This document shows, piece by piece, positions 2,278 to 25,490 of a stretch of 36,843 nucleotides of DNA (position 1 is the first letter of the stretch; each line of letters opens with the position of its first letter). The position numbers were made by a program, and so were the translations under genes. Source of the stretch: Candidatus Omnitrophota bacterium (lineage in GTDB: Bacteria; Omnitrophota; Gorgyraeia; B26-G9); contig JAMWCB010000002.1 in assembly GCA_023819605.1 (NCBI GenBank), positions 1 to 36,843 of the forward strand, read 5' to 3'. Under the pieces are notes generated by a model. That model searched no databases, had not been told where the DNA came from, and saw only the letters and a list, made by a program, of their open reading frames with translations.

Positions 2278-2371
2278 TGGTAATTCCTCCTCAGCGTTAA
2301 AACGAGTTATTCACAGAATTCACAACCTCTACTACTATTTTTTGTTAGTTATCTCTTGATAATATCTTTTG

Positions 2372-3060: not shown

Positions 3061-3072
3061 CTCCCGACCAAT

Positions 3073-3670: not shown

Positions 3671-3688
3671 GCAAATCCTCCTCTCTGA

Positions 3689-4228: not shown

Positions 4229-4314
4229 TCTTGAAATAGGCCTCGATAGTTTTGGCTAATACGGACACTCCTTTTTTTGAGGGTGTCCGCAGAGATCCCA
4301 TATCCTCCGCCAAC

Positions 4315-4530: not shown

Positions 4531-4755
4531 AACGCTCCTCTACTGACTACATACGCAGACTTTTTGAAAACAGACGAAAAAAAGTTCGAAAACAAAAAAA
4601 TTTCCGTCACCCTGCAGGAAATCTGCGTATATAGAAAGAGAGAATGTGCGAGTGTGCGATCTCCAAGCAGAACAGCTCTAAGTTGTTGTAATAGCTTGAC
4701 TTGTGGATGGTTCTATTATAGGGTTGGGTCGCAAAACGAAAAACGAGTTTAAGCG

Positions 4756-7696: not shown

Positions 7697-8092
7697 TTAT
7701 AACGGATAGGTTCCGCCCCACACGTCGTCCTGAGTAACGGTAAGCGTCTTAGTATTATGCGGGCCGCCGGTTCTGGTTGCTTGCAGCGTAAACGTCGTAA
7801 CGGCAACCGCCGGGACGGAATAGGCCCAATCAGTATCGGAATTATCCATGGCGACAAAATCAGCCCCGACTTCCGCACCTAAGAGAACCAATTGGTTGGT
7901 ATATGTTTCCGCGGCCGAAAAATAATGATTCTGGGCAGATTGCAACGCTTTGAGGTTATTGACCGCTTTTGACGCCCGGCTACGCTCCACCGCCGTCATG
8001 TACGCCGGAACGGCTATGCCCACCAGAATACCAATAACTACGACGACCACCATTACTTCCAGCATCGTAAACGCGCTGTTCTTCTTATTCAT
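7697..8092 (-). CDS. type IV pilin-like / pseudopilin protein with prepilin-type N-terminal cleavage/methylation domain
   Basis: Start moved to ATG 8092, which has AGGAGG 5 nt upstream. MNKKNSAFTMLEVMVVVVVIGILVGIAVPAY is the class III signal peptide (A/G-F-T-x-x-E) plus a hydrophobic helix. The protein is 131 aa. Confidence 0.85.
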   Translation of the reverse strand: MNKKNSAFTMLEVMVVVVVIGILVGIAVPAYMTAVERSRASKAVNNLKALQSAQNHYFSAAETYTNQLVLLGAEVGADFVAMDNSDTDWAYSVPAVAVTTFTLQATRTGGPHNTKTLTVTQDDVWGGTYPL

Positions 8093-8144
8093 GATCCTCC
8101 TTACTACTTTATCAGTTAACCGTTTATTAGTTTTTCTATTATTA

Positions 8145-8173
8145 ATTATACTGCCTTTTTTCTGGAAAAACAA
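8145..8173 (-). promoter_or_regulatory. candidate sigma70 promoter of the pilin-like gene
   Basis: The minus strand reads TTGTTT-17 nt-TATAAT. The -10 is about 50 nt upstream of ATG 8092. Confidence 0.45.
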
Positions 8174-8180
8174 GAATTCG

Positions 8181-8209
8181 TTGACGCACTGTCCGGAACA
8201 CGTTATGAT
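8181..8209 (+). promoter_or_regulatory. candidate sigma70 promoter of the TPR gene
   Basis: TTGACG-17 nt-TATGAT on the plus strand. It lies back to back with the pilin promoter, the two -35 elements being 7 bp apart. Confidence 0.5.
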
Positions 8210-8394
8210 AGTAATAAGCCTCATCCGGGCGCTGCCGCGTTGCGGAGGGGCGTGCATGTCTGCCCGCGGGCCGTCGCGTGCGCACGAGCGCGGAGCGTGC
8301 CAACCGGAAAACAGCGCGGCATCCGGAATATCGAACATATGCCGATGAACGTCCGCCGGCGAATAGTGCATGTTCGAAAATCGCGCAGCTATCT

Positions 8395-10071
8395 ATGACC
8401 GTACGCCCGACACGAACACCGCCGTTTATTACCGCCGGGAAAAAATTGATTCCCTGGCTGCTTTTTTTTTCTCTCTGCGCCGCTGCCGCCGTGTATTTTT
8501 TTTCCGCGCATCCGCGGGCCGAACAGTACCTGTGGGAAACAACGGAAGAATCAAAATCGCACCTCCGCTCGTTTTTCCACGGGTTGCTGTCTATTGCACA
8601 TACCGACCGGTCCCGGCCTCCTGCAGCGTCGGAAAAACATGCGGCAACCTACGAAACCTTCCAAAATTCTTTTTACTATGGAGAAACCGGGCCGCAGCTT
8701 TCCGAAGCAATCCGCCAGGCGAAATTATTGCTCGCCGCAAACCCCTCCGACGTGGAACTCAAACGGAAGCTTGCCTTTTTGCTCTTCATAAACCGCGATT
8801 ATGTCGCCGCCCGGCGTTTCTACAACCAGATACTCCGTACTTTTTTTCTGACGCACAAAAAATTCGCAACGCTCTCCGACGACCCGGACTCCTATCAAAT
8901 CCGCCGCAGCATCATCGAACTAACCGCGCTTCATGCCGAACACGGCAATGAAAAAAATTTTCTTTACCATTACGAACGCACGGTCCGCGCCACCATTCCC
9001 GGCGATGATTACCGGACGCGGAACGCCGGCAGCGCTGTTGCCGCGCGCATCGATATCGCCGCGCAGCTATCCGGCGAGGGCATTTATTCCTGTCAAAAAT
9101 CGATCGAACAATTACGGGCTATTCTGCAGAAACACCCCCATCACCCCGACGCATTTTATCACTTAGGGTTAAAATACGTCGAATTAGCGCACCTCCGCGA
9201 TGTGCGCGGCCAAAACACGCCGGCGGCGCTTGCCGAAACAGCCGCGTTGCTTCAGGAAATTATGGCCCGGCTCTTTCCGCAGCACACGGCGGACAAAATC
9301 CAACGGCAACTGAACGAATTCCGGCAAACCGCTCAGGAGGCGCAGAATGCCCTGGACACCTATTCCGATCTGCTGCGCTGGCTGGGCGGACATGGGGTGT
9401 ACGCCGGCGCGTATTCCCTGGAACGCCCGGTCATGGAAATCTTTACTGCGCTGCCGCGTCTGGAACTGGCGCTCGGGCAATTCGCCGCGACGCTGCGCGC
9501 CGAACTGCCGCCGTTTCTGCGTATAAAAAAAATTCTTGCGGAAGCGTATGGCCATTTCGACGAGCTTCCCCAGCCGCTGAGTTTCGCGCCAGCCGATGAA
9601 CACGCGCTGTACTTTATTTTTCCACAGCTAAGCCATCCGCTGCCGATAACCTACTTCCTCAAAGACGTCTACCGCGAGGAATTTGAATCCGCGCTCGCGC
9701 AGATCAACGAACTTTTACGCACCCTGATCGAGCGGGGATGGGGACGCCGGCTCCGCGCCCTGCTCGTCGGGCAGGGGGACATCGCTTTTTACCGGCAGGA
9801 TTTTCACCGCGCGCGCCTTTACTACCAACAAGCGCTGGCCTGGTCATTCTCTTCCGACTATTCCCCCGAGAATTTTTCAATCCATGCCAAAATAATCGAT
9901 GCGCTCATTGAAATCAAAAATTATGACGACGGGCTGCGGTATATCCAACACCTGTATGCGGCAAACATTCCCCTGCCGGCGCGCCAAACGCTGATCAATC
10001 AGCTGCGTCGAATTTACACCGCGCGCGGCGACCATCTGCGGTTACGCCGCCTCAGTCCGCCTTCCCCGTAA
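8395..10071 (+). CDS. membrane-anchored TPR/helical-repeat protein
   Basis: The stop is fixed at 10071. The start is taken as ATG 8395, just before the TM segment LIPWLLFFSLCAAAAVYFF. The longest ORF starts at GTG 8278, and neither start has a clear SD. TPR-like repeats are present (e.g. GDIAFYRQDFHRARLYYQQALAW). Confidence 0.65.
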   Translation: MTVRPTRTPPFITAGKKLIPWLLFFSLCAAAAVYFFSAHPRAEQYLWETTEESKSHLRSFFHGLLSIAHTDRSRPPAASEKHAATYETFQNSFYYGETGPQLSEAIRQAKLLLAANPSDVELKRKLAFLLFINRDYVAARRFYNQILRTFFLTHKKFATLSDDPDSYQIRRSIIELTALHAEHGNEKNFLYHYERTVRATIPGDDYRTRNAGSAVAARIDIAAQLSGEGIYSCQKSIEQLRAILQKHPHHPDAFYHLGLKYVELAHLRDVRGQNTPAALAETAALLQEIMARLFPQHTADKIQRQLNEFRQTAQEAQNALDTYSDLLRWLGGHGVYAGAYSLERPVMEIFTALPRLELALGQFAATLRAELPPFLRIKKILAEAYGHFDELPQPLSFAPADEHALYFIFPQLSHPLPITYFLKDVYREEFESALAQINELLRTLIERGWGRRLRALLVGQGDIAFYRQDFHRARLYYQQALAWSFSSDYSPENFSIHAKIIDALIEIKNYDDGLRYIQHLYAANIPLPARQTLINQLRRIYTARGDHLRLRRLSPPSP

Positions 10072-10094: not shown

Positions 10095-10589
10095 TCATAC
10101 CCCGCGGACTTTAACGACGATTTTGTGCACTAAACACGCACGCTCCCGTTGAATTCCCGGCGCATGCGCGTCGCTCGGAGCAAAAATCGCGGCCATCCCC
10201 GGCTGCAAAACAAAACAGGTTGCGCACGCAAAATCCGCCGCCGTGGTTTGAAAAAACATACAATCATTTTCCTCATCATACGCAGTTTCCAGGCGGTGCC
10301 GCTGATCCACCGGCCGGACATACATACGTTCCTCGCCGCCGATGAGATACTGGATATCGTAATAGCGGCGGTGCGCTTCAAAACGCGCCGCCGTAGGCGG
10401 CTTAGTCAGGTACGCCTGTTCGATAACCACTACGTCCTCTGCCTGTACGGCGCGGCGCTGCGCAAACCCCGCGCCCTGTTCCAAGAGATCGCGTGAATTA
10501 TACTGCGCCGCATACCGGAGGCCTTCGGACAATAATCCCGTACCGATTTTCTGCCGGAGTAAATCGGGGAGCATTCCAATGATTGCCAT
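10095..10589 (-). CDS. yhcH: YhcH/YjgK/YiaL (DUF386) family protein
   Basis: Start moved to ATG 10589, which shares one base with the upstream stop (TGATG). EAHRRYYDIQYLIGGEERM and VLQPGMAAIFAPSDAHAPG...KIVVKV align with E. coli YhcH segments ELHEQYIDIQLLLNGEERI and ILKPGMFAVFMPGEPHKPG...KVVVKV, recalled from memory. Confidence 0.8.
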   Translation of the reverse strand: MAIIGMLPDLLRQKIGTGLLSEGLRYAAQYNSRDLLEQGAGFAQRRAVQAEDVVVIEQAYLTKPPTAARFEAHRRYYDIQYLIGGEERMYVRPVDQRHRLETAYDEENDCMFFQTTAADFACATCFVLQPGMAAIFAPSDAHAPGIQRERACLVHKIVVKVRGV

Positions 10590-11881
10590 CAGCCGCCTCC
10601 GTTCAAGATCATCCCCGGCGCAGGCCGGGTATGGCGAAAGCATTCTTTGGGAACATTAAAATACCCCTGCCTTATCCCGGGAAATTCCCGGGAGACATTT
10701 TCGATAACCGTCCGCACTCCCAACAAACGCTCTGCTTCCGCGCCGATGATCCGGTAATACTGTTGCGGGTCGATATTCAAATTTCGCCACTGAATCATAT
10801 CCGGCTTGGCGCTGCGCAGCAGCTGCCGCAACCGGGCCCACTCCCGGGGATGATCCGTCACCCCCGGCATCACCAAGTAGTTCAAGGAAATAAATAGGTT
10901 ATAGCGTTTCGCGACGGCGATTGTTGCGCGCACATCCGCGAACGTATACCCCTGCGGCCGATAATAGCGCCGGTACCAGTCCGCCTGGCAGCTATTTAAA
11001 CTGACCCGTATACTGTTGAGCCCGCTGCGGCACAACCGCGCAATCGCCGCCGGCAAACTGCCGTTGGTATTGAGATGAATCGTTCCTTTTGCCGTGCGCG
11101 CGCGAATCAGCCGGATAGCCGCGGCGATAACCTCCGCCTGCAGGAGCGGTTCTCCCTCGCACCCCTGGCCAAAGCTGACCATGGGCCGCCGCACCCGTTG
11201 AATATGCGCCAGCGCAATTTCCGCCACCTCTTCCGGGTCCGGAACAAAACAAATACGCTGCTGCGACGCCGGCGGAGAGTACGCCGGCTGGAAAGAAATA
11301 CAGCCGGCGCATCGCGCATTGCATGCCGGCGATACCGGCAGCGGGCATTCATACCGGCCCACAAAAAAATTTATCGCATTCGCGCAGCGGGACGACAGGG
11401 CGCACTGCTGCAACCGGCGGAGCAGGCGATTGGGCGTGGCGCGGTACGGCCGCACGGCGCGCCGGATCATCGCCGGGCTGATCTGGCCGGTATCATGCAC
11501 GCCGCGGCGATCAACACGCACCGCCGGCACGGCGTAACCGCCGCGGTACCAGGCAACCGGCGCGTAAGAAAACAGCGGCAGCGTTTGCGCCTGCGGCTGT
11601 TGCCGGTACGCAGCGCAGTACAATTGCGTATACCCGGGCGGCACCAGCGCAGCCACCGCGTTCACGTCGGCGATTTCTTCAAACACGCCGCGGCGCCGGT
11701 CGAATCCGACCGGCGTGCGCAACGGCAAAACGAATAAACGCCCTGCCGCCGGCAGCGGCACCAAATCGGCGGGCCGCAAAACCGATACCTGTTCTCCGGC
11801 CAATCCGCAGGCTTGGAATCCCGGCGCTTCCACGATCCGCCGCTGTTGATCAACGGCCAGTAAGCGGGGATACTCCTTCAC
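10589..11881 (-). CDS. radical SAM protein, subfamily unknown
   Basis: 430-aa ORF with a GTG start. It carries the CxxxCxxC cluster motif CNARCAGC, followed by a TIM-barrel-like region (VSFGQGCEGEPLL, HLNTNGS). Confidence 0.8.
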   Translation of the reverse strand: MKEYPRLLAVDQQRRIVEAPGFQACGLAGEQVSVLRPADLVPLPAAGRLFVLPLRTPVGFDRRRGVFEEIADVNAVAALVPPGYTQLYCAAYRQQPQAQTLPLFSYAPVAWYRGGYAVPAVRVDRRGVHDTGQISPAMIRRAVRPYRATPNRLLRRLQQCALSSRCANAINFFVGRYECPLPVSPACNARCAGCISFQPAYSPPASQQRICFVPDPEEVAEIALAHIQRVRRPMVSFGQGCEGEPLLQAEVIAAAIRLIRARTAKGTIHLNTNGSLPAAIARLCRSGLNSIRVSLNSCQADWYRRYYRPQGYTFADVRATIAVAKRYNLFISLNYLVMPGVTDHPREWARLRQLLRSAKPDMIQWRNLNIDPQQYYRIIGAEAERLLGVRTVIENVSREFPGIRQGYFNVPKECFRHTRPAPGMILNGGG

Positions 11882-11950
11882 ACATATTATCCTTTAATTG
11901 ACGCCGGCAGCCCGTTATTTGTTCTTACGATACATAACGCATTTCGGCGC

Positions 11951-13237
11951 TTAAAATTGTTTTTTAAACTCAATCTGCACTTTTTGATCCGGTTTAGCCC
12001 CCGTACCGTTGACCGTGCTCATCACCGATTCCGCTTCAATGCTGATCCTTTTATCATCGGCGACCTTGGAACTGACTCCGACACTATGGGTTAGTTGCGG
12101 CACCTGGTTCTGCGCATTTTTCTGTTCAACCCCGACATGGACCGCTGTACGGCCATCCAACTCTTTCAATACTTCTACTTTGCGCTTCTCGTCGTCATAA
12201 CGCAAATCACTAATACTAATCCCCAACATCTGGGAAAATTTCCGGCCTTCCCCTGCAAATAAAAAATAATCCACAAAATCTTTCACCAGCTCCGCATTGT
12301 TCACCTGGCCGGACGTTAATCCCGTGCGGGTATCCGCCCAATTGGTTCCGGTCGCCAACATTACCATCAATTCTTCTTGCGAATACGGAGGATTCGACGC
12401 CAATTGCAGTTCCGGCAGTTCCAATGATCCTTGTAAGACAATGGTTATGCGCACATCCGCGTCTTTTACCTTCACCGCCGTTGTTCCCCGGCAATCGACC
12501 GCCGGCTCGCGGAAATTTCCCTGGTAATTGATTTGGCAGGATTCCGCCGCGATCGTTAAATTTTGCTTATGCAAATAAACCGTGCCGCCATTGGCCCGCG
12601 CATAGCCATACAGGCGCGGCGGCCGCCGGCCCCGCAATTCCAAATCAAAAACACCGGCAGACGCATACGCCTCAAACGTCGTGCCGCTGAGCGCTTCGAT
12701 ATAAAACGTTCCGCGGACGCGCGGGCCAAATAGCGGCCCCGCAAAAACCGCATCCAGATCCCGAATCCGTCCGCCGACATTTTTAACCGCCGGGCTCTCG
12801 GAAACTAAATTTAAAATTTCTTTTACCCCCACATATTTTCCGTACAGTTTAATATCGAAACTTCCCCGCCGGAGATTGCCGTAAAAAATAATCGTATCCG
12901 AACCCGGAAAATTCAGCCGGCCGTTCTCAATTTCAACGGCAATACCGGAGAGAGACGGGGCTTGCACACTTATCGACAACGCGGCGATTTTCATCTGCGC
13001 GCCGGCCGGCAGCTTATTCATATTTTTAATTTCAACGTCGCGAAACGATAATCCGCCCGCTAATGTCCCTTCAATCGTCCCGATCGTAATCGTCCGGGAA
13101 TCGATATAATATCCCAATACCCGCCGCGCCAACATACTTGAGCCGCGCGGCGTAAAAAATAAAAAATTTATCGCCGCGGCCGCCATGCTCACCGCCGCCA
13201 GCAGGAATACCGATTGCAACACATATTTTATTCTCAT
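11951..13237 (-). CDS. TamB/AsmA-like (DUF490) translocation-and-assembly-module-type protein, short form
   Basis: N-terminal membrane anchor (VLQSVFLLAAVSMAAAAINFLFF), a beta-rich body, and a C-terminal DUF490-like signature LQLASNPPYSQEELMVMLATG. The protein ends in ...VQIEFKKQF (terminal Phe). Confidence 0.6.
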   Translation of the reverse strand: MRIKYVLQSVFLLAAVSMAAAAINFLFFTPRGSSMLARRVLGYYIDSRTITIGTIEGTLAGGLSFRDVEIKNMNKLPAGAQMKIAALSISVQAPSLSGIAVEIENGRLNFPGSDTIIFYGNLRRGSFDIKLYGKYVGVKEILNLVSESPAVKNVGGRIRDLDAVFAGPLFGPRVRGTFYIEALSGTTFEAYASAGVFDLELRGRRPPRLYGYARANGGTVYLHKQNLTIAAESCQINYQGNFREPAVDCRGTTAVKVKDADVRITIVLQGSLELPELQLASNPPYSQEELMVMLATGTNWADTRTGLTSGQVNNAELVKDFVDYFLFAGEGRKFSQMLGISISDLRYDDEKRKVEVLKELDGRTAVHVGVEQKNAQNQVPQLTHSVGVSSKVADDKRISIEAESVMSTVNGTGAKPDQKVQIEFKKQF

Positions 13238-13438
13238 CGCTCGCCGCCTCTTGCCTCGCGCAAACGCCGCGTGGCCTCATGCCGGGTACACATCGCTGGT
13301 ACACCTCCGTCTACGGTTATTGTACGGCAACCGGCAACCCGGATAAAGCTTTTTTATCCACAGCCGCGGGAAGCTCGCCCGGGCTGCCGCCCAGGGTTTC
13401 CGAGCGGCATCCCGCGGTTTGCGGCGGAAGCGCAGAGC

Positions 13439-15361
13439 TTACCGTCCTGGTGATCTATTCAGGATCGACTGTATATCGGCGATCGACTGTTCCAGGCAGC
13501 GCCCCAGGAATTGCGCGCCCTGCCGCACTGACCGCAGGAAGTGGACGTCCTCTTGAAAATCGTTCGCCGCGTCTTTCCATTGTTTATCCCGGACGGCGCC
13601 GTCCGGAATGCCCCCTTCCCGGATCAATTGCATCAGCGCGTTAACCACATCCGCGTGAATTATACGCAAAACATCCTCATGTTCGCGTATGGTTGACGTC
13701 CATGCCGTTATATTCCGTAAGCGCTGCGCCGCGTCCGCCGCTTCGCCGGAACCGGCGGAGGCGGAAGCGATGACTCGCTCCAGTTCGGTTGCGCCGAAAC
13801 CGGCGGTTGCTTCGACAACCGCCGCCCGCTGCCGCAAATCCCTCATCTTCTCCAGCACCGCGCCAAAATCCGGCGGCGTCCACTGCCGGCGAACCTGTTC
13901 GAAAATTTCCCGCGCCGCACAGTCGCGGCATCCATAACGGGCGATCGCCTCGCGCAACGGCAGGGGCACGGTGCCGGCAATTCCCGCTCCGCCTTCGGTG
14001 GCGTTGATACACGTCCTGCCTGACTCCTGCACCAACCGCTCAAAATGCCGCAAATAAATATACATCGGTTGATTAGTCAGTACTTCTTCTCCGGTCAAGG
14101 TGCTGGAAATACGCAAAAGCTTTTCCCGTTTTAAACGCCGAATCGATTCAACCTCCTGCCGTGACGCCGTTCCCTGCGCGTGGGTAAAGCCGCCGGGAAA
14201 CGACAAATCCTGCCCGATAAAAATAATCGGATCACAGCCCAGGCGCACCGCGATATTAAAAATAAAATGCGCCACCGACATGCCTTTCGGCAAAATTCCT
14301 TTATCCTCGGCTAACGTATTGACCCAGGCGGAAAACGGCTTTGCCGAAGCTGCCACAAAACGCGGGCCCCGATAGGCTTCCAACGACGCCCAGGACGCCT
14401 CGATTTCGAAAACCAGCGGAATATCGTGCGTCGGCACCTGCTCAAAATGCTCCCGGCTGACCTCGTTAAAATCCGCAGTAAACACCAAATCCGGGCGCAG
14501 GCCGTGCTGCTGGAGAATCCGCAACGCCGTATCCGTCGCTAAAACGAGGAGTTTACCATTAACCTGATGGAGCGCAGCTATATTTTTATCTAAGGATGGC
14601 CCGGCGGAAACGATAATCGCCGGAACTCCCCGAAAGGCACCGAAGAGCCGGCTAACCCCCGGATTGGTAATCGCCTCTTTCAGATTCAACGCGGCATTTC
14701 GAAGCAACGTCCATCCGGCGCGCCGCACCGTGGCGATATTCGACGCGGCGGTGCGCATCGCGTCAAGAATCCGCCCTCGGACCAAACTGAAATACTGCCG
14801 TTCCACGTGCACGTTCGGATACCAATCTAAAATAACTAACGGCGCGGCCATCAATACCAACGGATAGCGGCTCAGCCAAGCAAAGACATCCAGATCGCTC
14901 ATCCCCACCAAAAGATGCACGCGCGGATCGGCAAAAACATCGGACAGATCTCGCGCCGTCACTGCGGCGCGTAACACCTCCGGCAGCGGCTCGATAATAA
15001 AAAGCGCGTTGAACCGGCGCGGTGCGCGCAGCAATGCCTGGGCGACATACCCCAGGCCGAAACCAAAGAGCACCAGATGAGCCTGCTGCGAGTACGATTG
15101 CCGGGACAGCCAGGCGGCTGCCTCCGACGCCGGCTCATAACGGCTATGGGCAAACCGCTCTTTAATCCGGAGCGTCGGCTGCCCGTTTCGCGCGGCAAGC
15201 ACCGTCACCGGCGCAGCCGCTGCGGCCACCGGCGAACCAATACGTGCGAATGCCTCCGGGTGTTTGTCCCGCAGCATCGTTTCATTGCGTTGCCGCAGTT
15301 CATCACGCGATCCCGGCTCAGCCGGATCTTTTCCCGCGTCAACTAATTCCGATTCGGCCAT
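13439..15361 (-). CDS. maf: motility-associated factor (Maf, DUF115) glycosyltransferase family protein
   Basis: 640 aa, with an ATG start and AGGAGG 8 nt upstream. Maf hallmarks: FAHSRYEPASEAAAWL, SAGPSLDKNI, IIFIGQDLSFPGGFTHAQGT, CINATEGGAGI. It aligns over its full length with ORF 16214-18052. Confidence 0.8.
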   Translation of the reverse strand: MAESELVDAGKDPAEPGSRDELRQRNETMLRDKHPEAFARIGSPVAAAAAPVTVLAARNGQPTLRIKERFAHSRYEPASEAAAWLSRQSYSQQAHLVLFGFGLGYVAQALLRAPRRFNALFIIEPLPEVLRAAVTARDLSDVFADPRVHLLVGMSDLDVFAWLSRYPLVLMAAPLVILDWYPNVHVERQYFSLVRGRILDAMRTAASNIATVRRAGWTLLRNAALNLKEAITNPGVSRLFGAFRGVPAIIVSAGPSLDKNIAALHQVNGKLLVLATDTALRILQQHGLRPDLVFTADFNEVSREHFEQVPTHDIPLVFEIEASWASLEAYRGPRFVAASAKPFSAWVNTLAEDKGILPKGMSVAHFIFNIAVRLGCDPIIFIGQDLSFPGGFTHAQGTASRQEVESIRRLKREKLLRISSTLTGEEVLTNQPMYIYLRHFERLVQESGRTCINATEGGAGIAGTVPLPLREAIARYGCRDCAAREIFEQVRRQWTPPDFGAVLEKMRDLRQRAAVVEATAGFGATELERVIASASAGSGEAADAAQRLRNITAWTSTIREHEDVLRIIHADVVNALMQLIREGGIPDGAVRDKQWKDAANDFQEDVHFLRSVRQGAQFLGRCLEQSIADIQSILNRSPGR

Positions 15362-16217
15362 CCGCCGTTCCTCCTGCGCCGCATTGGACGCGATAGCGCT
15401 GCCGCCGGCCGGCTAAAGCGCCCGGCCGCACCGGTTCCGGCGACACGGCCCAGCCTGTTGGACGGCATACCGCCAAAATCTTATTCGCTAAAAACAGCGG
15501 ATAATTACGGCACGCCTCTGCGGCATCCGGAAAACGAATCTCCAGGCTGACCATATCCGGTGTGCGGAACGGTTCCGGCGGCAGCCTGAGGCATTGCTGC
15601 CCCGCCGGCAAAATTTTTTCCAATGTTTCGGCGCCCGGCGGGAAAATCAGGTGCAGCTGCTCTGCGCTATAGCCGCTCAACGCGAGCATTTCCTGTAAAC
15701 CCTGCAACGTAAACCACCGGATGTGATCTTCATTCATGATACCGCCGGCGGCTCCATACGGGAAATAGCCGCGGACGATCTGAACCAGGATCTGCCAGTT
15801 TTGGACGTTCGGGGTAACGATAATCAACCGTCCGTCGGCGGCAAGGCAGCGGCGCAATTTCGCGCAGACATACCAGGGATCATACAAATGCTCAACAACA
15901 TCGTGCATGACGATGTAACGAAAGAATCCCGAAAATTCCGCGCCTAAATCCGCATCCGGCGCCGCCAAATTAATATTCCAAAAACCGTCGAGCAGATCCG
16001 CCAGCGGCACACGGATCGACGGGTCGATGTCCACGCCATACAACTGCCGGCAGGCTTTATCGCGCGCAAGCCGGAAGAGCAATTCGCCTTCATGGCAGCC
16101 GAAATCCAGAATCCGCTCCGCTCCCTGCGGAATAATACCGAATACCTGCTCCCGAAACGGATTGCGGCGGATTATTTCATCGCGCAGCGCCGCGTTTATT
16201 TCCGGATGGTTATTCAC
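15339..16217 (-). CDS. class I SAM-dependent methyltransferase
   Basis: Motif I RILDFGCHEGELL and the downstream VMHDVVEHLYDP. The start is taken as GTG 16217, which overlaps the upstream Maf stop (GTGA) and has GGGAGAG upstream. The longest ORF starts at GTG 16259. The stop overlaps the downstream Maf gene by 23 nt. Confidence 0.8.
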   Translation of the reverse strand: MNNHPEINAALRDEIIRRNPFREQVFGIIPQGAERILDFGCHEGELLFRLARDKACRQLYGVDIDPSIRVPLADLLDGFWNINLAAPDADLGAEFSGFFRYIVMHDVVEHLYDPWYVCAKLRRCLAADGRLIIVTPNVQNWQILVQIVRGYFPYGAAGGIMNEDHIRWFTLQGLQEMLALSGYSAEQLHLIFPPGAETLEKILPAGQQCLRLPPEPFRTPDMVSLEIRFPDAAEACRNYPLFLANKILAVCRPTGWAVSPEPVRPGALAGRRQRYRVQCGAGGTADGRIGIS

Positions 16218-18052
16218 GGCCGCTCTCCCTGCAACTGCTCGTCGGCTTTTTCCAGGCACGCCTCAAGCACCGCGGCAGCCCGCTGCACCCCCTGTTGCAG
16301 GGCGTAATCATGCTTCAAATCCGCCGCCAATGCCGCCGGATCCGGCGCCAGCCGCTCTTCGCGAGCGCGCACGCCGCCCTCGTGTTCGATGCCCATCATC
16401 GATTCCATGATAAATGGATGCATCATCCGCAACAGCAATTCTTCCCCGGATATCAGCCGCGATAAGGGTTTAACCTTTTCCCACAAACGCGCTACCTGCT
16501 GCCAGTCCGGCGCCGGCCGGCTGGTGAGCCGAAGCATCTCGTCGAATAATCCAATAATCTCTCCGGATGCGCGCCGCAGCCGCCCTACCAGATCCCGTAT
16601 CTGGGCTAAACCGGCACGCACCAGCGCGCGGTCGGCCGGCGCCGCCGCCTGCCGCAGCGCTTCTATCCGCTCCCGCACCGGCACCGGCTTCGCGCAGTAC
16701 GCTGCCACCGCTTCCGCCGCCGTCGCCGCTGTTGTGCCGCGAATGCCGGCGCCGCCTTCGGTCGCATTAATACAACGGCGCCGGCTGGCCGCAACCAGCT
16801 TCTCAAAATGCCGCAAATAAATATACATGTCCATGGACGTTTCGCAGGATTCGCCGGTCAATTCGCTGCGTACCTGCAATAACCTCCCGTTGTCGTAGCG
16901 GTCGCTCGGGCGACGGGAGCGCGTTCCGCCGGCATGCGTTACCCCGCCGGTAAACGCCAAATCCTGCCCGATAAAAATAATCGGCTCGCAGCCCATCGCC
17001 GTCGCCACGGCAAAGGCAAAATGCGCCACGGACAGCCCTTTATCCACAATACCTTTATCGCCGCATAACGAATTTATCCAAAACGGCAGCGGCGCGCTGG
17101 TCGCCGAAACAAACCGCGCACCGGTATAAGCTGTGACAACTGCCGGAGAAGCTTCCATATCGAAAAGCAAGGGAACCCGCTCGCTGTCCACGCCGGCGAA
17201 ATGCCGCGCGCTTTCCGCTTGATAATCCATGGTCAAAACAAAACTCGGCGCAATCCCGGCGCCGCGCACCCGCGGAAACGCCGTATCCGTGCAGAGCAAG
17301 ACCGCGCGCTCCGCGGCAGCGGGCAGTTCATGAATATTCTTATCCAAAGACGGGCCGGCGGAAATAATGAACGCCGGCACCGCCGCAAATGCCCCGCGCA
17401 ACGCGCGGATACCAGGGCTGCCGACAATCGCGGGTAAATTTCCGAAAACATTTTCCAACATGAGCTGACCGAGTTTGTTGACCGTCGCAACACTGGCCGC
17501 CGCCGTCCGCAAACTATCCAATACCCGCTGGCGGACTTCCGCAAAATACGCCGGCGCCGCCTGCACCGAGCCCGGATGTTCCAGTAGTACCGTCCGGCTG
17601 GCCATCAACGCCACCGCCCGACTGCTCAGACAATCCATTACTTCCAATGGTTCCATACCCACGCAAAAAATTATGTCCGGGTGCGCGAGAAAAGGCCGGA
17701 AATCGTTGAGCAGCAATGCCTGATGAAACAAATCCCAATCAGGCTCGATGACAACCACGGTGTTTAACGCGCAAGCCTGCCGAAACAACGCGGCCAGATG
17801 ATAGCCGAGGGCAAACCCCAAAACAATGACATTTTCCCGCGCTTGAATATTTTGCGCGCGCACAAACGCGGCGGCTTCCGCTGCCGGATCATAGGCGCTG
17901 TGCAAAAATTTTCCGTTTCGTTGTATCGTCGGTTTACCGCAGCGGCTGGCTTCGATCTTCAAGGCGGGAAGGCGGCGTGTTTGCAGGCGCTGCGCAAGCT
18001 GTTTATACCGCGCCTGCAGAACAGCGAGATTATCGGCAAAACAATCGGTCAT
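16214..18052 (-). CDS. maf: motility-associated factor (Maf, DUF115) glycosyltransferase family protein, second paralogue
   Basis: 612 aa. Same hallmarks as the first Maf: FLHSAYDPAAEAAAFV, SAGPSLDKNI, IIFIGQDLAFTGGVTHAGGT, CINATEGGAGI. Confidence 0.8.
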   Translation of the reverse strand: MTDCFADNLAVLQARYKQLAQRLQTRRLPALKIEASRCGKPTIQRNGKFLHSAYDPAAEAAAFVRAQNIQARENVIVLGFALGYHLAALFRQACALNTVVVIEPDWDLFHQALLLNDFRPFLAHPDIIFCVGMEPLEVMDCLSSRAVALMASRTVLLEHPGSVQAAPAYFAEVRQRVLDSLRTAAASVATVNKLGQLMLENVFGNLPAIVGSPGIRALRGAFAAVPAFIISAGPSLDKNIHELPAAAERAVLLCTDTAFPRVRGAGIAPSFVLTMDYQAESARHFAGVDSERVPLLFDMEASPAVVTAYTGARFVSATSAPLPFWINSLCGDKGIVDKGLSVAHFAFAVATAMGCEPIIFIGQDLAFTGGVTHAGGTRSRRPSDRYDNGRLLQVRSELTGESCETSMDMYIYLRHFEKLVAASRRRCINATEGGAGIRGTTAATAAEAVAAYCAKPVPVRERIEALRQAAAPADRALVRAGLAQIRDLVGRLRRASGEIIGLFDEMLRLTSRPAPDWQQVARLWEKVKPLSRLISGEELLLRMMHPFIMESMMGIEHEGGVRAREERLAPDPAALAADLKHDYALQQGVQRAAAVLEACLEKADEQLQGERP

Positions 18053-18066
18053 CGGTCAAAATCCGG

Positions 18067-18699
18067 TCAAATACCGTTTTTCTCCCGGGCCGTGAGCTCG
18101 GCGGTCAAGCTATCCACGACACCCCGGATTGTATCGGTCAGCGGAATCAATTCATAACGCAGCAAATCCTGCAAATACACGACATCCTGTTCCTGCACTG
18201 CTGTTTTTATTTGTGTAAAAATACCCGCCATGTCGTCGGAAACAGTATCAATGCTGCGTTCACCGACCATCAAACGGCTGAAATCCAGTCCGTACATCGC
18301 CCGGACATTTTCGAATAATCCGACAATCGTCCGCAATCCTTCCAAGTCGGCGATAAACGTATCGTACGCGCTTTCCTCGCCGCCTAACTGTAAAACATCA
18401 AGAAATTTTTCAATTTGCCCCTGGAACGCCCCCAGGTAATCCCGGCTGCGCGCCAGCGTGCTGATCGTCAAGCGAAACGGCGATTCGGTCAAAATTTCCA
18501 ACCGCTCCACCCCGTCTAATTTTTGACCGCGCCATTCCGTCTCGCGACCGACAACCATGCACGCGCCGTTAATACAAATATTACTGATGATTTTATTTTC
18601 CTTATCGACAATCGGCTTAAGCAACTCAATAAAATCCTCTACCGTAACCGAATTGCCCGGCGCAATATCCCGCTGCTGCCCATCAATTATCACTTTCAT
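18067..18699 (-). CDS. hypothetical protein of the Maf locus
   Basis: 210-aa ORF with an ATG start preceded by GGAGAGGAG. Its stop lies 14 nt before the Maf start. No recognisable motif. Confidence 0.7.
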   Translation of the reverse strand: MKVIIDGQQRDIAPGNSVTVEDFIELLKPIVDKENKIISNICINGACMVVGRETEWRGQKLDGVERLEILTESPFRLTISTLARSRDYLGAFQGQIEKFLDVLQLGGEESAYDTFIADLEGLRTIVGLFENVRAMYGLDFSRLMVGERSIDTVSDDMAGIFTQIKTAVQEQDVVYLQDLLRYELIPLTDTIRGVVDSLTAELTAREKNGI

Positions 18700-18857
18700 T
18701 GCCCGCTCCTCTCCTCTCTGCCGCTGCCGTTCTCCCGCGTTTTGTACCGTTCGTCTCGGATGCCCGCTGCCGGCGGGAATACCCCGCTGGTTACCGCGTA
18801 TACATTAGAGCGCGGCCGGGTGGACGAACATTTCACCCGCCTGATAAACTGTTCGGG

Positions 18858-20270
18858 TTAACACTGCAGGGCCGGCATCCGTTCTTCCCGCATCCGCAGG
18901 CACGCCTGGCACAGCGGATATTCCTCAACGGAAAAATCGATCAACGCGCGCTGAAGACGCGCGAGCGCCCGGCTCTGCCACAACGTATCGATGCCGCCGG
19001 CGACCGTACCGATGCTCATGCGCCCGTCGATATCGCAACAACACGGCGCCACGGTTCCATCCCATAACACGTTCATTTTTTCGAAAGGTTCCCGGCAGAG
19101 CGGTTCGGTCGCGAATTCCCCTGCCTCGGGGTGTCCATAGGTGTAGGTTTTCAAGCTTCCCTGCTCATCGAAAAATTCCGGATTGTAGTGACATTTTAAA
19201 GGAATCAGCCTGATCTCATCGACAAATTCGCGCAAGGGCGCTAAAAACCGCTGTACTGCCTGCGCGTATTCCGGCCGGGCAGCGGGAATAATCGTGGAAA
19301 TGTAGAGCTTCACCTGCTCGCGCAAACCCATGCTTTCCCGTTCGGCATGCAGCGAACGCAGGCCGGCATGCATGCGCGACCACGCGCTTCCGGCGCGCAG
19401 CACCGCATAAGAATCGGCGTCAAACCCGTCGATGGACAAACCAATCGCCGCCGGGGCAGCCGTTAAAAGTTTCCGCCGCACTGCCGGCCGCTCCAACAGC
19501 AGGCCGTTGGTCTGAATCCCGCTGATACACCCTTCCTGTTTTGCCCGCAGAACCAATTGATGAAACTTCGGATGCAGTAACGGCTCCCCTAAAAAAAATA
19601 ATTTTATTTCGCCGGCGCGGCGCTGTGTGAACGAAATATCCGAGAACTCCAAGTGAGCGAGGCGTAACGATACTGACCGGCTGCGCCAATGGCCGAAAAT
19701 ATCATCAAGCATCGCCACGGAAATAAAGCCCCGCTTGCGGCTCATATGTGTACGCGGGCACATGCGGCACTGGAGGTTGCAACAATTGGTCGGTTCAATC
19801 TGCAAAACGTACGGCGAATCCGGCATAATCGCTATCCGGCTGCCGTCACGACTGATCATCAAACGCTGGCGCAGCCGTTCCGCCTGCCGCATGACCAGCC
19901 GGTCTCCGGTTTGCGCGCCAAGCTCCAGCGCAAGCGCGGTTGCCTGCTCGAAAATATACGGCCGGGACGGCACATCGACACCATAGAGCAATTCCGCTAA
20001 TTGACCGCATTGCAGCGCTGCCTGGGCATTAAATGCCGCCTCCGCCGGTTGCTCTCGCCCCTGCGCCGCCCGTGCCTGCTGCAGCAACAAGAAAAAATGC
20101 GCAAATGCCTTCCGGTATTCTTTCCGCCACAGCCATGCAATGGCCGCACAATACCGCAACCGGCAATCAGCGGTATCGTCTTGCAGGAACAGTTCCGCTG
20201 CCTGCGCCGCGTCGGTAAATCTCTGCTGCCGCACTAATCCGGCCAGCACGCTTTTTTGACTAACATCCAT
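18858..20270 (-). CDS. TPR-like N-terminal domain fused to a radical SAM/SPASM domain protein
   Basis: Start moved to ATG 20270, which has AAGGAG 6 nt upstream. The helical N-terminus spans about 150 aa. The radical SAM motif is CCNLQCRMC (CxxxCxxC). The C-terminal SPASM-type Cys cluster is CREPF...GTVAPCCCDIDG...EYPLCQAC. Confidence 0.85.
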   Translation of the reverse strand: MDVSQKSVLAGLVRQQRFTDAAQAAELFLQDDTADCRLRYCAAIAWLWRKEYRKAFAHFFLLLQQARAAQGREQPAEAAFNAQAALQCGQLAELLYGVDVPSRPYIFEQATALALELGAQTGDRLVMRQAERLRQRLMISRDGSRIAIMPDSPYVLQIEPTNCCNLQCRMCPRTHMSRKRGFISVAMLDDIFGHWRSRSVSLRLAHLEFSDISFTQRRAGEIKLFFLGEPLLHPKFHQLVLRAKQEGCISGIQTNGLLLERPAVRRKLLTAAPAAIGLSIDGFDADSYAVLRAGSAWSRMHAGLRSLHAERESMGLREQVKLYISTIIPAARPEYAQAVQRFLAPLREFVDEIRLIPLKCHYNPEFFDEQGSLKTYTYGHPEAGEFATEPLCREPFEKMNVLWDGTVAPCCCDIDGRMSIGTVAGGIDTLWQSRALARLQRALIDFSVEEYPLCQACLRMREERMPALQC

Positions 20271-20309
20271 ATTTTTCTCCTTGCCATTACGTTTTAATTC
20301 ACAAAAAAT

Positions 20310-20325
20310 AGCAATTATTATGCCA
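20310..20325 (-). promoter_or_regulatory. sigma54 (-24/-12) promoter
   Basis: The minus strand reads TGGCAT-AATAA-TTGCT, against the consensus TGGCAC-N5-TTGCW. The GG and GC dinucleotides are correctly spaced. The element sits about 40 nt upstream of ATG 20270. Confidence 0.55.
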
Positions 20326-21223: not shown

Positions 21224-21571
21224 TCAACCGCCGCCGGAAAAATCGTCTTCCAGCGCGGCGAATGCGTCGCGCAATTGCGCGAATAGCTGCGGGATGGCCG
21301 CCGGGTCGCTGCCATCTTTTGCCAAACGTTCAAGCGCAGCGGCCGGCTCGACCAACGCCTGCAGCCTTAAATTCGCGGCAGCGCCTTTAATGCTATGCAC
21401 GATCGTTCCGATCAGGGCAAGATTATTCGCGGCGAGAGCCGCCGCCGCCTGTGCCAATTGTTCACGCGTCTGCTGCCGAAACAACCCGATCAATTCCAGA
21501 TAAATATCCTCGCTGATACCCCCGAGCGCGGAGAGTATCGCTTGCCGCTGTAGTTTATCCCGATAATCCAT
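21224..21571 (-). CDS. Hpt domain phosphotransfer protein
   Basis: Start moved to ATG 21571, which has AAGGAG 6 nt upstream and overlaps the kinase stop as TGATG. The phospho-accepting motif is HSIKGAAANL. Confidence 0.8.
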   Translation of the reverse strand: MDYRDKLQRQAILSALGGISEDIYLELIGLFRQQTREQLAQAAAALAANNLALIGTIVHSIKGAAANLRLQALVEPAAALERLAKDGSDPAAIPQLFAQLRDAFAALEDDFSGGG

Positions 21572-24500
21572 CACGTCTCCTTCTGCGCGCCGCGCTGTCC
21601 CCATTGCCGGAATAACTTACGAATCTTCCCGGAATCAATCGGCTTGGTAATGTAATCGTCCATTCCTCCGGCAATCGCCGTTTCCCGGTCTTCCAAAGTA
21701 GCCGCTGCGGAAACCCCGACAATCGGCACCGGATTAGCCAATTCGGTGCGGATAATCCGCGTTGCCGCCAACCCGTCCATCTGCGGCATCTGCACATCCA
21801 TCAAAACAATATCATACCGGTTATAACGTATTTTTTCGATGGCCATGCCGCCGCTGTCGGCAATATCCGTAGCACAGCCGAAGCGCCGGATCAGCGCTTC
21901 CAGCAGTTTATAATTTATCGGGTTATCATCGACAATTAAAATGCGTAAATTCTTAAATTCTTCCGGATTATCGGCGGGATCACGGCTTGCCGGTTCACCG
22001 GCAAATAACGACTCCAACGTCTTAACCAGGTCGTTCTTAAAAATCGGTTTCGTCAAAAAAGCCGAGAATCCGTACTGCCGGGAAAGGAAGGCGGTACCGA
22101 TATTCGTGTCCTGGGTTGTCGCAATAATTTTCATTTTTTCCAACGCTAACTCGCTGCGCACGGCTCGGGCTAATTCATAACCGTCCATACCTTTCAGGAC
22201 AATATCGGACAACAGAATGTCCGGGGCGGAACTTTGCTGTTTCAGCCAGTCCAAAGCGCTCTCGGCATCGGGAAATGTCTCCGCGACAACCAATCCCTGC
22301 TCTTCGCAATATTGCTTCAACAAATCGCGCGCGGCCGGATGATCTTCAACAATAACCACGCGTTTGCCGACAAGACCGGCAGACACGGCTGCCGGCCCCT
22401 CCGGTTCGCCGGATTCCGCGTTATCCAAAAACAGCGTAAAAAAGAATTCACTGCCGACGCCCTCCTGGGACCGGAAGCCGATCGCGCCGCCCATCCGCTC
22501 GACCAACGATTTACAAATCGCCAATCCCAATCCTGACCCGCCGAAACGGCGCGCCGTCGAAGGATCCGCCTGCATAAACGGCTTAAATATGTACGGTTGC
22601 TTCGCTAACGGAATACCGATGCCGGTGTCGCGCACGAAAATTTCCATCCGCGTTTTTCCCTGTTCCGGCGCCGCCGCGGAAACACGCAGCCGAACTTCGC
22701 CCTGTTCGGTAAATTTCACGGCATTACTGAGTAAATTCAGGAGGACCTGCCGGAGGCGCGTCGGATCTCCGGTAAACCGGCGCGGCAGCGCATCGGCATA
22801 TTCACAAAAAAACTCGACGCTTTTACCCTGCAGGCGCGGCTTGATCATATTAAACGTCGATTCAATCAACTGATGCAAATCAAAATCAATATGTTCTAAA
22901 AGCAAATTTCCCGCTTCAATTTTCGAAAAATCAAGGATATCGTTGATGATGCCCAATAACAAATTACAGCCGTCAAGAATCGTTTGCATATATTTGCGCT
23001 GTACTTCATCGACCATCGTTCCGGCTAAAAGTTCCGCGTATCCGACGATGGAATTCATCGGCGTGCGAATCTCGTGCGACATACTGGCCAAAAACCGCGT
23101 TTTCATTTCACTTGCCTCTTCGGCAATACGGCGCGCCTCCTGCATCGCCGTTTCCGCCTGCTTGCGCGCTGAAATATCGCGCACAATGGCGATTGAATTC
23201 AGCAGCCGACCCTGCGCATCGCGCACGACGCTCAAGGAGATATCCACATCCAGCAAGCCGGTGCGCGTAAACATCTTTGTCTCCAAATGGTGCTGCATGC
23301 CTTTTTGCCGCACATTCTGCGCCCGGATTTTCTGCCATTCTTCCGCCGGATACAACGTTTGCACGGATCGCTGGCGCAAATCGACCTCGCTAAAACCGAG
23401 CATCGTTTCCGTATACGCATTCCAGGAAACCAATTGTTCATTCTCATCGGCAAGCATAATCGCCACCGCCGAATTTTCATAAATCGTTTTCAAGCGGTTT
23501 TGGGTCATCTGCAATTCTTCTTCCGCGCGCTTCTGCGCGGTGACGTCATCGTACATCATGACCAGGTCGCGCGAAGAAATTTTATACACATAGGTTTCCC
23601 GCCAACTCCAAATCCGGTGTTCCCGATAATATGTAAACGGATGCGTCTCGGGAATCCCGTTCATCCACACTCTGCGTAAAATCTCCACCAGCCCGACTTC
23701 ATGAAAGGATGGGAAAATTTCACCCAGCCGGCGCCCCAAAACTTCCGCGCGATTGCGCCGTTCGATCGTTTCCGCGGCGCGATTAAATTCCTTAATGACG
23801 AATTCCTGCCCATTGTCGGTCACGGTCAAGACCATAACCCCGCTGCGCATATGGTCGAACATTTCCCGAAAACGCTGCTCGCGCATACGCAAGTTTTCCG
23901 CATACCGATACCGCTGGTCTAAGACATAGAGGAATAAACCGCCGAGGCCGCTCAACAGCAGAATCATTACCGCGCCGAATCCCCAATACCAGTGCAGCGA
24001 AAACGGCGCGGCGACCATAACCAGTCCGCGCAGATCGCCGCCCAGCGGTTCGTGCCGGATCAGCGGCTGAAGAAACGCCGCGGGAGACACGTATTTGCAC
24101 AGGCGCGCGAGCGCGATTTTTTGCGCCGCATCCGGCGGCCAGGCAAGCGGCCACAACGATACGCCGGCCGCTCCCGCCGCGTTCGATTCCGCAATCGTGC
24201 CCTGCCGGTCGACGATAAAATAAAACATATCCGGCGACAGCCGCGCGTCGTGCAGTGAAAACGGCGTATACCCGCCGATCACCCCGCGGACATCACCCTG
24301 CGCGTCACGCAGCGGGCTTGCCGCAAGGCTTGCCGGCGTGCCGTTCTCGCTGAGCATAAACTCAGTGCCGTGTTCGCCGGCTAAAGCCCGCCGGACACCG
24401 CGCAGTTCTTTCAGCAACCGCTTCCCCGCAAAGGCGGCATGCTCCTCCGGAAAAAAACCGCGCACCTCCCCCTGCGCGTCAAGGACGAACCCGGCGCGTA

Positions 24501-24792: not shown

Positions 24793-24847
24793 CGTTTCAT
24801 TCCTTGTCCGTCCGGACGCGAAAAAAACTTTTTTCCGGAACACATCG

Positions 24848-24877
24848 AAAAAAAGCACCCGGGCGTCAAGCCCGGGC
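24848..24877 (-). terminator. intrinsic terminator between cheX and the hybrid kinase gene
   Basis: The minus strand has a stem CCCGGGC/GCCCGGG (7 bp plus a G-U pair), loop TTGAC, then GC and TTTTTTT. Confidence 0.6.
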
Positions 24878-24977
24878 TTCGCTTATATATACGGATAAAC
24901 GCACGTTCACCGCACGACACTCCAACGACAGACACCCTGTCCACACGCGCCCGGTTTCGGACGCTCCCGCGTAGCGG

Positions 24978-25454: not shown

Positions 25455-25490
25455 TACCGCTCCTCAGGTTGTCAACATTGTTATCCGCAT

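Follow-up and report, generated by a model that had tools for sequence, protein, structure and literature searches.

A Maf glycosyltransferase locus of an Omnitrophota bacterium with a conserved small partner protein and a putative sugar-type radical SAM enzyme

Described Maf systems and the layout of the Omnitrophota locus

Glycosylation of flagellin by sugars resembling sialic acid is required in many bacteria for the filament to assemble and for evading immunity and phages. To our knowledge, the way in which Maf glycosyltransferases choose their acceptor and the origin of the large variety of sugar derivatives are poorly understood. We analyzed a block of genes at positions 10095-20330 of contig JAMWCB010000002.1 from a Candidatus Omnitrophota bacterium (assembly GCA_023819605.1), which encodes two Maf proteins and two radical S-adenosylmethionine (SAM) proteins; the entire contig of 36,843 nucleotides (nt) is called the window throughout. 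All characterized Mafs act on flagellin (PMC4065374, PMC3426422, 10.1101/2023.12.03.569772). In Shewanella, Maf-1 binds flagellin through a tetratricopeptide repeat (TPR) domain at its C-terminus (Unay, Kint, Viollier, bioRxiv 10.1101/2023.12.03.569772), and the TPR-less Maf-2 needs GlfM, a cis-encoded four-helix bundle of 89 residues whose last helix carries an essential aspartate (D77) (10.1101/2023.12.03.569772). Maf systems as such have been described, as have loci with several maf paralogues, islands that include methyltransferases and an adaptor built as a four-helix bundle.

A canonical island was found among 25 related loci (L001-L025, most of them short contigs) that we fetched for neighborhood comparison. 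In this locus (L007), from a Desulfobacula metagenome-assembled genome (MAG), a gene for a Maf-TPR fusion (Maf identity 31%) is followed on one strand by Methyltransf_23, WbuX, HisH and HisF genes, with NeuB, PseG/GNAT and PseB genes on the opposite strand beyond these. FliD and a flagellin of 1125 amino acids (aa) are encoded divergently from the Maf gene. This giant flagellin (L007:6248-9625, minus strand), located beside FliD, possesses a central insert with hexapeptide and left-handed beta-helix matches.

The Omnitrophota block consists of eight minus-strand genes, beginning with a radical SAM/SPASM gene and ending with a DUF386 gene (Table 1). From the 210-aa gene through mafA and the methyltransferase gene to mafB, neighboring genes overlap or lie 14 nt apart. 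Longer gaps are found between the first radical SAM gene and the 210-aa gene (158 nt) and after mafB (201 nt). A first-pass annotation made from the sequence had given the same gene order and the same gap after mafB, both of which are confirmed here, and most of its domain calls are borne out by Pfam and NCBIfam profile searches on the block proteins. The best relatives found for the window proteins are just 31-56% identical. On balance, we favor a division of the block into two units. Positions 13439-20325 (unit 1) would form a Maf-type flagellin O-glycosylation module and positions 10095-13237 (unit 2) would be separate, most likely with another function.

Table 1. Coordinates of the block features and of the neighboring flagellar cluster within the window.
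Feature	Positions	Strand	Basis or content
Flagellar switch/signaling cluster	21571-31849	-	1095-aa hybrid histidine kinase (dCache, PAS x2, HisKA, HATPase, REC x2), CheX, CheY, FliN/CheX, HTH_17 protein, FliM, response regulator, PilZ, HTH-cupin, REC-GAF, further REC protein
Sigma54 (-24/-12) promoter candidate	20311-20325	-	TGGCAT-N5-TTGCT
First radical SAM/SPASM enzyme, 470 aa	18858-20270	-	Pfam Radical_SAM and SPASM
210-aa TP0873_N/DUF8042 protein	18067-18699	-	Precomputed Pfam PF27299 and PF26154
MafA, 612 aa	16214-18052	-	MptE-like and Maf_flag10_N
Class I SAM-dependent methyltransferase, up to 306 aa	15339-16259	-	Methyltransf_23; overlaps both Maf genes
MafB, 640 aa, MafA paralogue	13439-15361	-	MptE-like and Maf_flag10_N
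Structured 201-nt spacer	13238-13438	-	RNA fold compared with shuffles
Short TamB-like protein, 428 aa	11951-13237	-	C-terminal part of Pfam TamB profile
Second radical SAM protein, 430 aa	10589-11881	-	Pfam Radical_SAM
DUF386 (YhcH/YjgK/YiaL) protein	10095-10643	-	Pfam DUF386

The Maf transferases and their conserved small partner

Both Maf proteins pass profile searches, as the first-pass calls would lead one to expect. The MptE-like domain (MAF_flag10, PF01973) scores 144.1 bits in MafB and 125.7 bits in MafA at a cut-off of 34.6, and the N-terminal domain Maf_flag10_N (PF20157) scores 33.6 bits in MafA and a borderline 23.6 bits in MafB compared with a cut-off of 23.5. MafA and MafB are paralogues with 39% identity over 587 residues, and MafA matches the solved Magnetospirillum Maf 5MU5 (E-value 2.2e-8). 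Scores for the PseD model NF050051 (95.7 bits for MafB and 92.2 bits for MafA) are far below its cut-off of 670, and the nearest relatives of the two proteins in public genomes are 31-39% identical; a scan of a genome collection with MafA gave matches of 31-37%. Pfam searches detect no TPR in the window Mafs and no family match for the C-terminal 178 residues of MafA. The protein encoded between them is a methyltransferase by its matches to Methyltransf_23 (E-value 2.2e-14) and to the putative methyltransferase PDB 3CC8 (E-value 3e-14), without a sequence homologue in any of the 25 related loci. The pairing of Maf and methyltransferase is paralleled by the Desulfobacula island, although no homology beyond the fold can be detected between the methyltransferase of that island and that of the window.

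The 210-aa family is a conserved partner of this Maf clade and represents the most reproducible feature of the locus. Five other loci (L006, L014, L015, L016 and L025), which differ in sample and phylum and include a Planctomycetales MAG (L006), have a homologue encoded upstream of Maf. In L016, a 215-aa gene without a Pfam match, in which a GT-A-like DXD motif can be seen by eye, stands between the homologue and the Maf gene. The member in L025 is distant (28% identity), and a glycosyltransferase gene lies further upstream of it. The contig of L013, which carries the closest relative (43% identity), stops after the homologue and before the next gene. The first-pass annotation had listed the protein as an unknown and had missed this conserved pairing. 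It has no match in our local Pfam or NCBIfam copies and is now covered by the precomputed Pfam families PF27299 (TP0873_N) and PF26154 (DUF8042), which are newer than the local Pfam copy. An exact look-up in public assemblies returned nothing, a word-index search returned the window's own copy alone and plasmid searches gave no match. A metagenome scan with a narrower alignment of the family yielded four short loci, and only an exhaustive HMMER search recovered the family at large, with 318 representatives of mostly 200-210 residues. Our literature search found no papers on TP0873 or DUF8042.

The AlphaFold (AF2) model of the 210-aa protein (predicted local distance difference test score, pLDDT, of 95.6) consists of a beta-grasp domain (residues 1-72) followed by a four-helix bundle (residues 74-207). 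Three acidic residues in the last helix, D172, D178 and E183, are invariant across 35 sequences. A fold search with the model gave no PDB match below an E-value of 0.1 and returned FliS at low probability only. A link to FliS or FliT is likewise unsupported by a PDB profile search, which gave designed helical bundles only.

We propose that MafA and MafB, which lack a TPR acceptor-binding domain, would add a cytidine monophosphate (CMP)-activated nonulosonic acid to serine or threonine residues of flagellin in the cytoplasm, the nonulosonate being supplied by genes outside this contig. Because the window Mafs are without TPR, as is the GlfM-dependent Maf-2, the 210-aa protein is a candidate acceptor adaptor that would partner the Mafs, most likely by bridging Maf and flagellin in the fashion of GlfM.

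A putative sugar-type radical SAM enzyme and the sigma54-type element

BtrN, DesII and BlsE are radical SAM enzymes whose substrates are sugars or aminocyclitols, with BtrN oxidizing a secondary alcohol. The first radical SAM protein looks like an enzyme of this type, judged by its sequence and its predicted fold. It is composed of an all-alpha N-domain (residues 3-134), a radical SAM core with the CX3CX2C motif and a C-terminal auxiliary-cluster (SPASM/Twitch) domain; Pfam scores are 41 bits for Radical_SAM and 37.3 bits for SPASM. Just 7 relatives were found among 5.8 billion proteins. When a profile of the family is compared with solved structures, the best matches are BtrN (E-value 1.6e-16), BlsE (9e-10) and DesII (1.6e-5), and the same three enzymes, in the order BlsE, DesII and BtrN, head the Foldseek list obtained with the AlphaFold (AF2) model (pLDDT 82.8), ahead of SkfB, MoaA and CteB. 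In the seven-sequence family alignment, C164, C168 and C171 of the CX3CX2C motif are invariant. The C-terminal part contains five invariant cysteines compared with seven in the full SPASM motif. Invariant C392, C410/C411, C454 and C457 fall in a block aligning with the BtrN C-terminal domain and, in our reading, four C-terminal cysteines would be the counterparts of the ligands of the single auxiliary cluster of BtrN.

The label TPR-radical SAM/SPASM given to this protein in the first-pass annotation is supported by Pfam for Radical_SAM and SPASM, and its TPR part has no profile match. Residues 1-143 are without any Pfam match even at an E-value of up to 1, and the N-domain of the model is an all-alpha fold of seven helices with weak Foldseek matches only to OGT and SPY. 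Two homologues do possess real TPR repeats, located in one of them (P0006) within an extra N-terminal extension. In the proposed mechanism, the methyltransferase and this BtrN/DesII/BlsE-like enzyme would tailor the sugar, the latter by abstracting hydrogen from a sugar carbon, in the simplest case for a BtrN-like oxidation of a secondary alcohol. The substrate could be the nucleotide sugar or the flagellin-bound glycan, and the helical N-domain may dock the enzyme to a protein.

Relatives of the enzyme occur in diverse contexts. A homologue with 37% identity (L001-L003) is surrounded by DUF2920, methyltransferase, two further radical SAM, DegT and split transketolase genes. In Campylobacter, DUF2920 genes are a typical component of the locus for flagellar glycosylation (PMC7099621). 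The neighbors of other close homologues are fucosidase and Rex-like genes (L004, 35% identity) or SIS-domain and rubrerythrin genes (L017, 40%), and the contig of L018 (35%) is too short to judge its context. More distant members, with identities given for the core, are encoded in sugar clusters on plasmids of Roseibium (29%; DegT, GNAT and heptose genes), Lawsonia (27%; acetyltransferase, DegT, methyltransferase, WbmS-like and AsnB genes) and Azospirillum (25%; rfbC, TPR protein, radical SAM/SPASM and GT41 protein glycosyltransferase genes). On plasmid pAB510f of Azospirillum sp. B510 (L021:7463-12979), a stand-alone TPR protein, the radical SAM/SPASM enzyme and the TPR-GT41 protein follow rfbC in a row, a split arrangement reminiscent of the window's fused helical-domain radical SAM enzyme beside protein glycosyltransferases.

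In two loci, such an enzyme is encoded directly beside a Maf-type gene. A metagenome contig (L024, 31% identity) contains an MptE-like gene scoring 32 bits, just under the cut-off, followed by the radical SAM/SPASM gene and a B12-radical SAM gene. Upstream of the MptE-like gene (L024:1-801, plus strand) lie two small paralogous open reading frames (ORFs) without a family match that share the motif KLVG.G.SDS.WRMSF and a C-terminal G-F-I-[IV]-S-G-P. In a Phycisphaerae MAG (L008), which likewise represents a canonical island, the order is Maf (about 31% identical), a very distant radical SAM/SPASM gene, an unknown gene, NeuB and a NeuC-type epimerase gene. The radical SAM/SPASM protein of this locus (L008:11518-13485, plus strand) carries a long extension at its N-terminus and shows a likeness to the spiro-SPASM family (105 bits at a cut-off of 250). 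Radical SAM/SPASM enzymes recur beside Maf-type genes and in sugar clusters, and the window subfamily is no fixed part of the module of Maf and partner protein. As its closest homologues are not seen beside Maf, we regard the first radical SAM enzyme as an accessory and not as a core component.

The position of the sigma54-like element depends on the start of the first radical SAM gene. Its longest ORF runs from 20330, and the likelier start is the ATG at 20270 behind an AAGGAG site; the element therefore lies 41 nt upstream of the gene and not inside it. It carries the GG and GC doublets at -24 and -12 with proper spacing and orientation. L013 contains a perfect TTGGCAC-N5-TTGCT (L013:623-637, plus strand) 115 nt upstream of its 210-aa homologue. 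This L013 site sits in the intergenic stretch 474-751, and a gene for a LuxR-type response regulator is found just upstream. The position of the window element together with the perfect site before the homologous L013 gene makes sigma54 control of the module plausible, and unit 1 is probably transcribed from a sigma54-type promoter. The promoter proposed in the first-pass annotation has support in these two respects, and not by its frequency: one window match with at most one mismatch compares with 3.09 expected from shuffles, so that by count the motif is no rarer than chance. No sigma54-type element is present in the 158-nt gap between the radical SAM gene and the 210-aa gene, and profile searches find no Sigma54_activat domain among the window proteins.

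The first radical SAM gene could alternatively be a mere neighbor that belongs to another glycan or cofactor pathway, with the Maf module starting at the 210-aa gene. The 158-nt gap and the Maf-free surroundings of the closest homologues are consistent with such an arrangement, as is the order of genes elsewhere. In L013 the sigma54 promoter directly precedes the 210-aa gene with the response regulator upstream, and in L025 the upstream gene encodes a glycosyltransferase. We nonetheless consider a chance neighborhood unlikely, given that the sole sigma54-type element of the window precedes the radical SAM gene, with none in the gap, that a Maf gene in L008 and an MptE-like gene in L024 directly adjoin the gene of a more distant radical SAM/SPASM enzyme, and that the homologue with 37% identity adjoins DUF2920.

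Another alternative concerns the substrate. The enzyme could modify a polypeptide, flagellin or other, in the style of the maturases of ribosomally synthesized and post-translationally modified peptides (RiPPs) or of anaerobic sulfatase-maturating enzymes (anSMEs), introducing a thioether, an epimerization or a formylglycine-type oxidation into a substrate bound by the helical N-domain. Its Pfam SPASM domain, its best NCBIfam matches (sub-threshold, to metalloenzyme maturases) and the presence of SkfB, CteB, EpeE and PqqE in the Foldseek list all point in this direction, and an all-alpha N-domain could bind protein, as the TPR repeats of two homologues illustrate. In both sequence and fold, however, the three sugar-acting enzymes come out best, and the C-terminal cysteines align with the single-cluster Twitch of BtrN and not with the seven-cysteine SPASM. 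Homologues moreover adjoin DegT aminotransferases, sugar epimerases and acetyltransferases, and no gene for a small precursor peptide is evident. We therefore judge a polypeptide modification to be rather improbable and retain the reading as a tailoring enzyme of the Maf module.

The proposed downstream unit and the rest of the contig

The 201-nt spacer probably separates two transcription units. Its RNA folds with -100.6 kcal/mol (z = -2.63), and none of 200 shuffles folds as well. No canonical terminator or promoter was called in it. The spacer is GC-rich and contains the palindrome GGATAAAAAAGCTTTATCC.

Downstream of the spacer, the TamB-like protein has an N-terminal hydrophobic segment and matches positions 152-381 of the 381 of the Pfam TamB (DUF490) profile (E-value 1.7e-12), with no NCBIfam match. 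TamB proper exceeds 1000 residues and has the full domain, unlike this protein of 428 residues with the C-terminal part only, which is probably outside the Maf system. The family of the second radical SAM protein is very widespread: the search returned 7703 relatives, of which the best 120 are 47-56% identical, approximately 415 residues long and come from Omnitrophota, Elusimicrobia and other phyla. Its sole PDB match is a weak one to NifB. Genes for Maf, DUF386, TamB or a sugar pathway are absent from five independent neighborhoods of the family, which have nothing in common with the window, and the protein is probably unrelated to Maf. Near one homologue (L009), an AsmA/DUF748 gene was considered as a counterpart of the TamB-like gene, and the link was dropped, the two proteins being without similarity.

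The true start of the last gene of the block is probably ATG 10589, which overlaps with the stop codon of the preceding radical SAM gene. Its product scores 100.4 bits for Pfam DUF386 and satisfies the broader DUF386 and TIGR00022 models, and it reaches 70.6 bits for the N-acetylneuraminate anomerase (NanQ/YhcH) model compared with a cut-off of 160. The designation YhcH used in the first-pass annotation holds at the level of the DUF386 family, of which the protein is a member without being a called NanQ. The DUF386 family has a link to sialic acids, and the best solved relative of the window protein is HP1029 of Helicobacter pylori. The HP1029 gene lies in the H. pylori flhF-fliA-fliM-fliY operon (PMC10655999). 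The window protein shares the DUF386 fold family with HP1029 and with YhcH of E. coli and Haemophilus, including an E-x-H...D motif (FEAHRRYYD) at the metal-ligand position, and HP1029 is likewise encoded near fliM and fliY. In the window, unlike in these systems, translational coupling links the DUF386 gene to the gene of the widespread radical SAM family, a pairing absent from five other contexts of the latter.

Unit 2, comprising the genes for the TamB-like protein, the second radical SAM protein and the DUF386 protein, is no conserved partner of the Maf genes and most likely has another function. We set it apart because the neighborhoods of the second radical SAM family are without Maf, because none of its three proteins has a homologue in the loci fetched via Maf, the partner protein or the first radical SAM enzyme, and because the spacer is strongly structured. 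As to the conservation of the whole block across genomes, which the first-pass annotation had proposed to examine, the pairing of the 210-aa protein with Maf recurs, and the TamB-like protein, the DUF386 protein and the methyltransferase are without homologues in the related loci. The same annotation had joined all eight genes, from the promoter to YhcH, into one glycan tailoring or attachment pathway with two radical SAM enzymes. Eight genes on the same strand with short gaps would suit a single pathway, and so would the association of DUF386 with sialic acids, the flagellar operon of HP1029 and the lack of a clear terminator call in the 201-nt gap. The wide distribution of the second radical SAM family with its five Maf-free neighborhoods, the lack of unit 2 homologues in the fetched loci and the strong structure of the spacer argue against it, and we hold a single pathway to be quite improbable.

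Unit 1 lies in a flagellar neighborhood. Genes for FliM, a FliN/CheX fusion, CheY and CheX, which had gone unmentioned in the first-pass annotation, are found 5-8 kb upstream on the same strand, and a PilZ gene and several response regulator genes 5-10 kb upstream, also on the same strand. The earlier suggestion that the block is wired into the flagellar regulon is in agreement with this location of the Maf genes, and a sigma54-type promoter is plausible here and recurs in L013. Among the large ORFs of the 36.8-kb window, neither flagellin nor Pse/Leg/Neu biosynthesis genes are found, as had been claimed from the first inspection. That the Mafs glycosylate a different surface protein, for example a pilin or an S-layer protein, is highly improbable even with no flagellin gene in the window and a type IV pilin-like gene at 7697-8371, given that every characterized Maf acts on flagellin, that flagellar switch genes are present on the contig and that related Mafs adjoin flagellin and FliD in the Desulfobacula island.

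The remainder of the contig carries further features. The region 433-6492 looks like the remnant of a mobile element, with a ParB-N/DNA methylase fusion (433-1737), HTH proteins, a sigma70-region-2 protein (3689-4228) and a large serine recombinase (4756-6492, plus strand). ARAGORN predicts a tRNA-Ser(GGA) at 6379-6466 on the minus strand, overlapping the 3' end of the recombinase gene. This tRNA is not reported by Rfam at the gathering score, and the Rfam search of the window returned no RNA family. The gene at 8278-10071 (plus strand), convergent with the DUF386 gene, encodes a 597-aa protein that has weak TPR matches and a faint one (E-value 9e-4; 17.7 bits, far below the cut-off of 300) to the C-terminal part of FlcA, a flagellar collar protein of spirochaetes. 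At the other end (31900-36841, minus strand), ORFs of 142, 189, 400 and 426 aa, the last reaching the contig end, surround a class I glutamine amidotransferase gene (34944-35504) and have no family match and no PDB sequence match, including those at 33745-36841.

Comparison with described systems

Several observations weigh against a division into a flagellin glycosylation module and a separate downstream unit. Acceptor and donor are assumed, since flagellin and nonulosonate biosynthesis genes are absent from the contig. By count, the sigma54 motif does not exceed chance, and the window proteins include no recognized sigma54 activator. On the available contigs, most of which are short, Maf does not adjoin the closest homologues of the first radical SAM enzyme (35-40% identity), and the contexts of these homologues differ. 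In L013 and L025, where the contig extends upstream of the partner gene, this upstream region contains no radical SAM gene, and across the 158-nt gap of the window we infer co-transcription of the two genes. The partner protein differs from GlfM in size (210 compared with 89 residues), in its added N-terminal beta-grasp domain and in gene position, upstream of maf here and downstream in the published GlfM system. Finally, given the tie of DUF386 to sialic acids and to the H. pylori flagellar operon, unit 2 may not be wholly unrelated, and there may be a loose flagellar link for the DUF386 gene alone.

The first-pass annotation had presented the locus as a candidate undescribed pathway. Taken as a whole, the system belongs to a known type, and a radical SAM enzyme in flagellin nonulosonate tailoring is the part that we did not find in the literature. 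Our search returned no paper that gives a radical SAM enzyme a role in this process and, for radical SAM together with flagellin glycosylation or pseudaminic acid, incidental mentions only; the phase-variable genes of Campylobacter fetus, for instance, include annotated radical SAM genes alongside methyltransferase and formyltransferase genes (PMC6321876). If the proposed reading is true, TP0873_N/DUF8042, widespread and reproducibly encoded before one Maf clade, could represent a second kind of adaptor besides GlfM, and the sugar-type radical SAM enzyme of the probable operon would add radical chemistry to nonulosonate tailoring. A more far-reaching combination can be put forward only tentatively and is doubtful as a whole: BtrN-like radical SAM enzymes would be recurrent, overlooked Maf partners that make a radical-tailored nonulosonate or glycan, and TP0873_N/DUF8042 would at the same time be a second, independent class of adaptor for TPR-less Mafs from spirochaetes to Planctomycetota.

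Compared with known Maf systems, including PseD and PseE of Campylobacter, Maf-1 of Aeromonas, the Magnetospirillum Maf 5MU5 and Maf-1 and Maf-2 of Shewanella, the window system shares both Maf domains, the presence of several paralogues, a SAM-dependent methyltransferase gene between the maf genes and a flagellar neighborhood. It differs from known Maf islands in having no adjacent flagellin or pse/leg/neu gene, for which the contig may be too short, and in the presence of the radical SAM enzyme and the TP0873_N/DUF8042 protein in its probable operon. As in the GlfM-Maf-2 pair of Shewanella oneidensis, a TPR-less Maf is accompanied by a small soluble protein encoded alongside, a pairing that is kept across distant bacteria. 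The 210-aa model has a four-helix bundle at residues 74-207, and the invariant D172, D178 and E183 of its last helix may include a counterpart of D77 of GlfM. In contrast to the GlfM system, the partner is a Pfam TP0873_N/DUF8042 protein and the Mafs are longer (612 and 640 residues compared with 441). The first radical SAM enzyme, in turn, resembles BtrN, DesII and BlsE, which are its best matches in sequence and predicted fold, in its CX3CX2C motif, in its aligned auxiliary-cluster cysteines and in the occurrence of its homologues in sugar-modification clusters. It is set apart from these enzymes by an identity of approximately 16-21%, by an added all-alpha N-domain of 135 residues and by its location in a probable protein-glycosylation operon and not in an antibiotic pathway.

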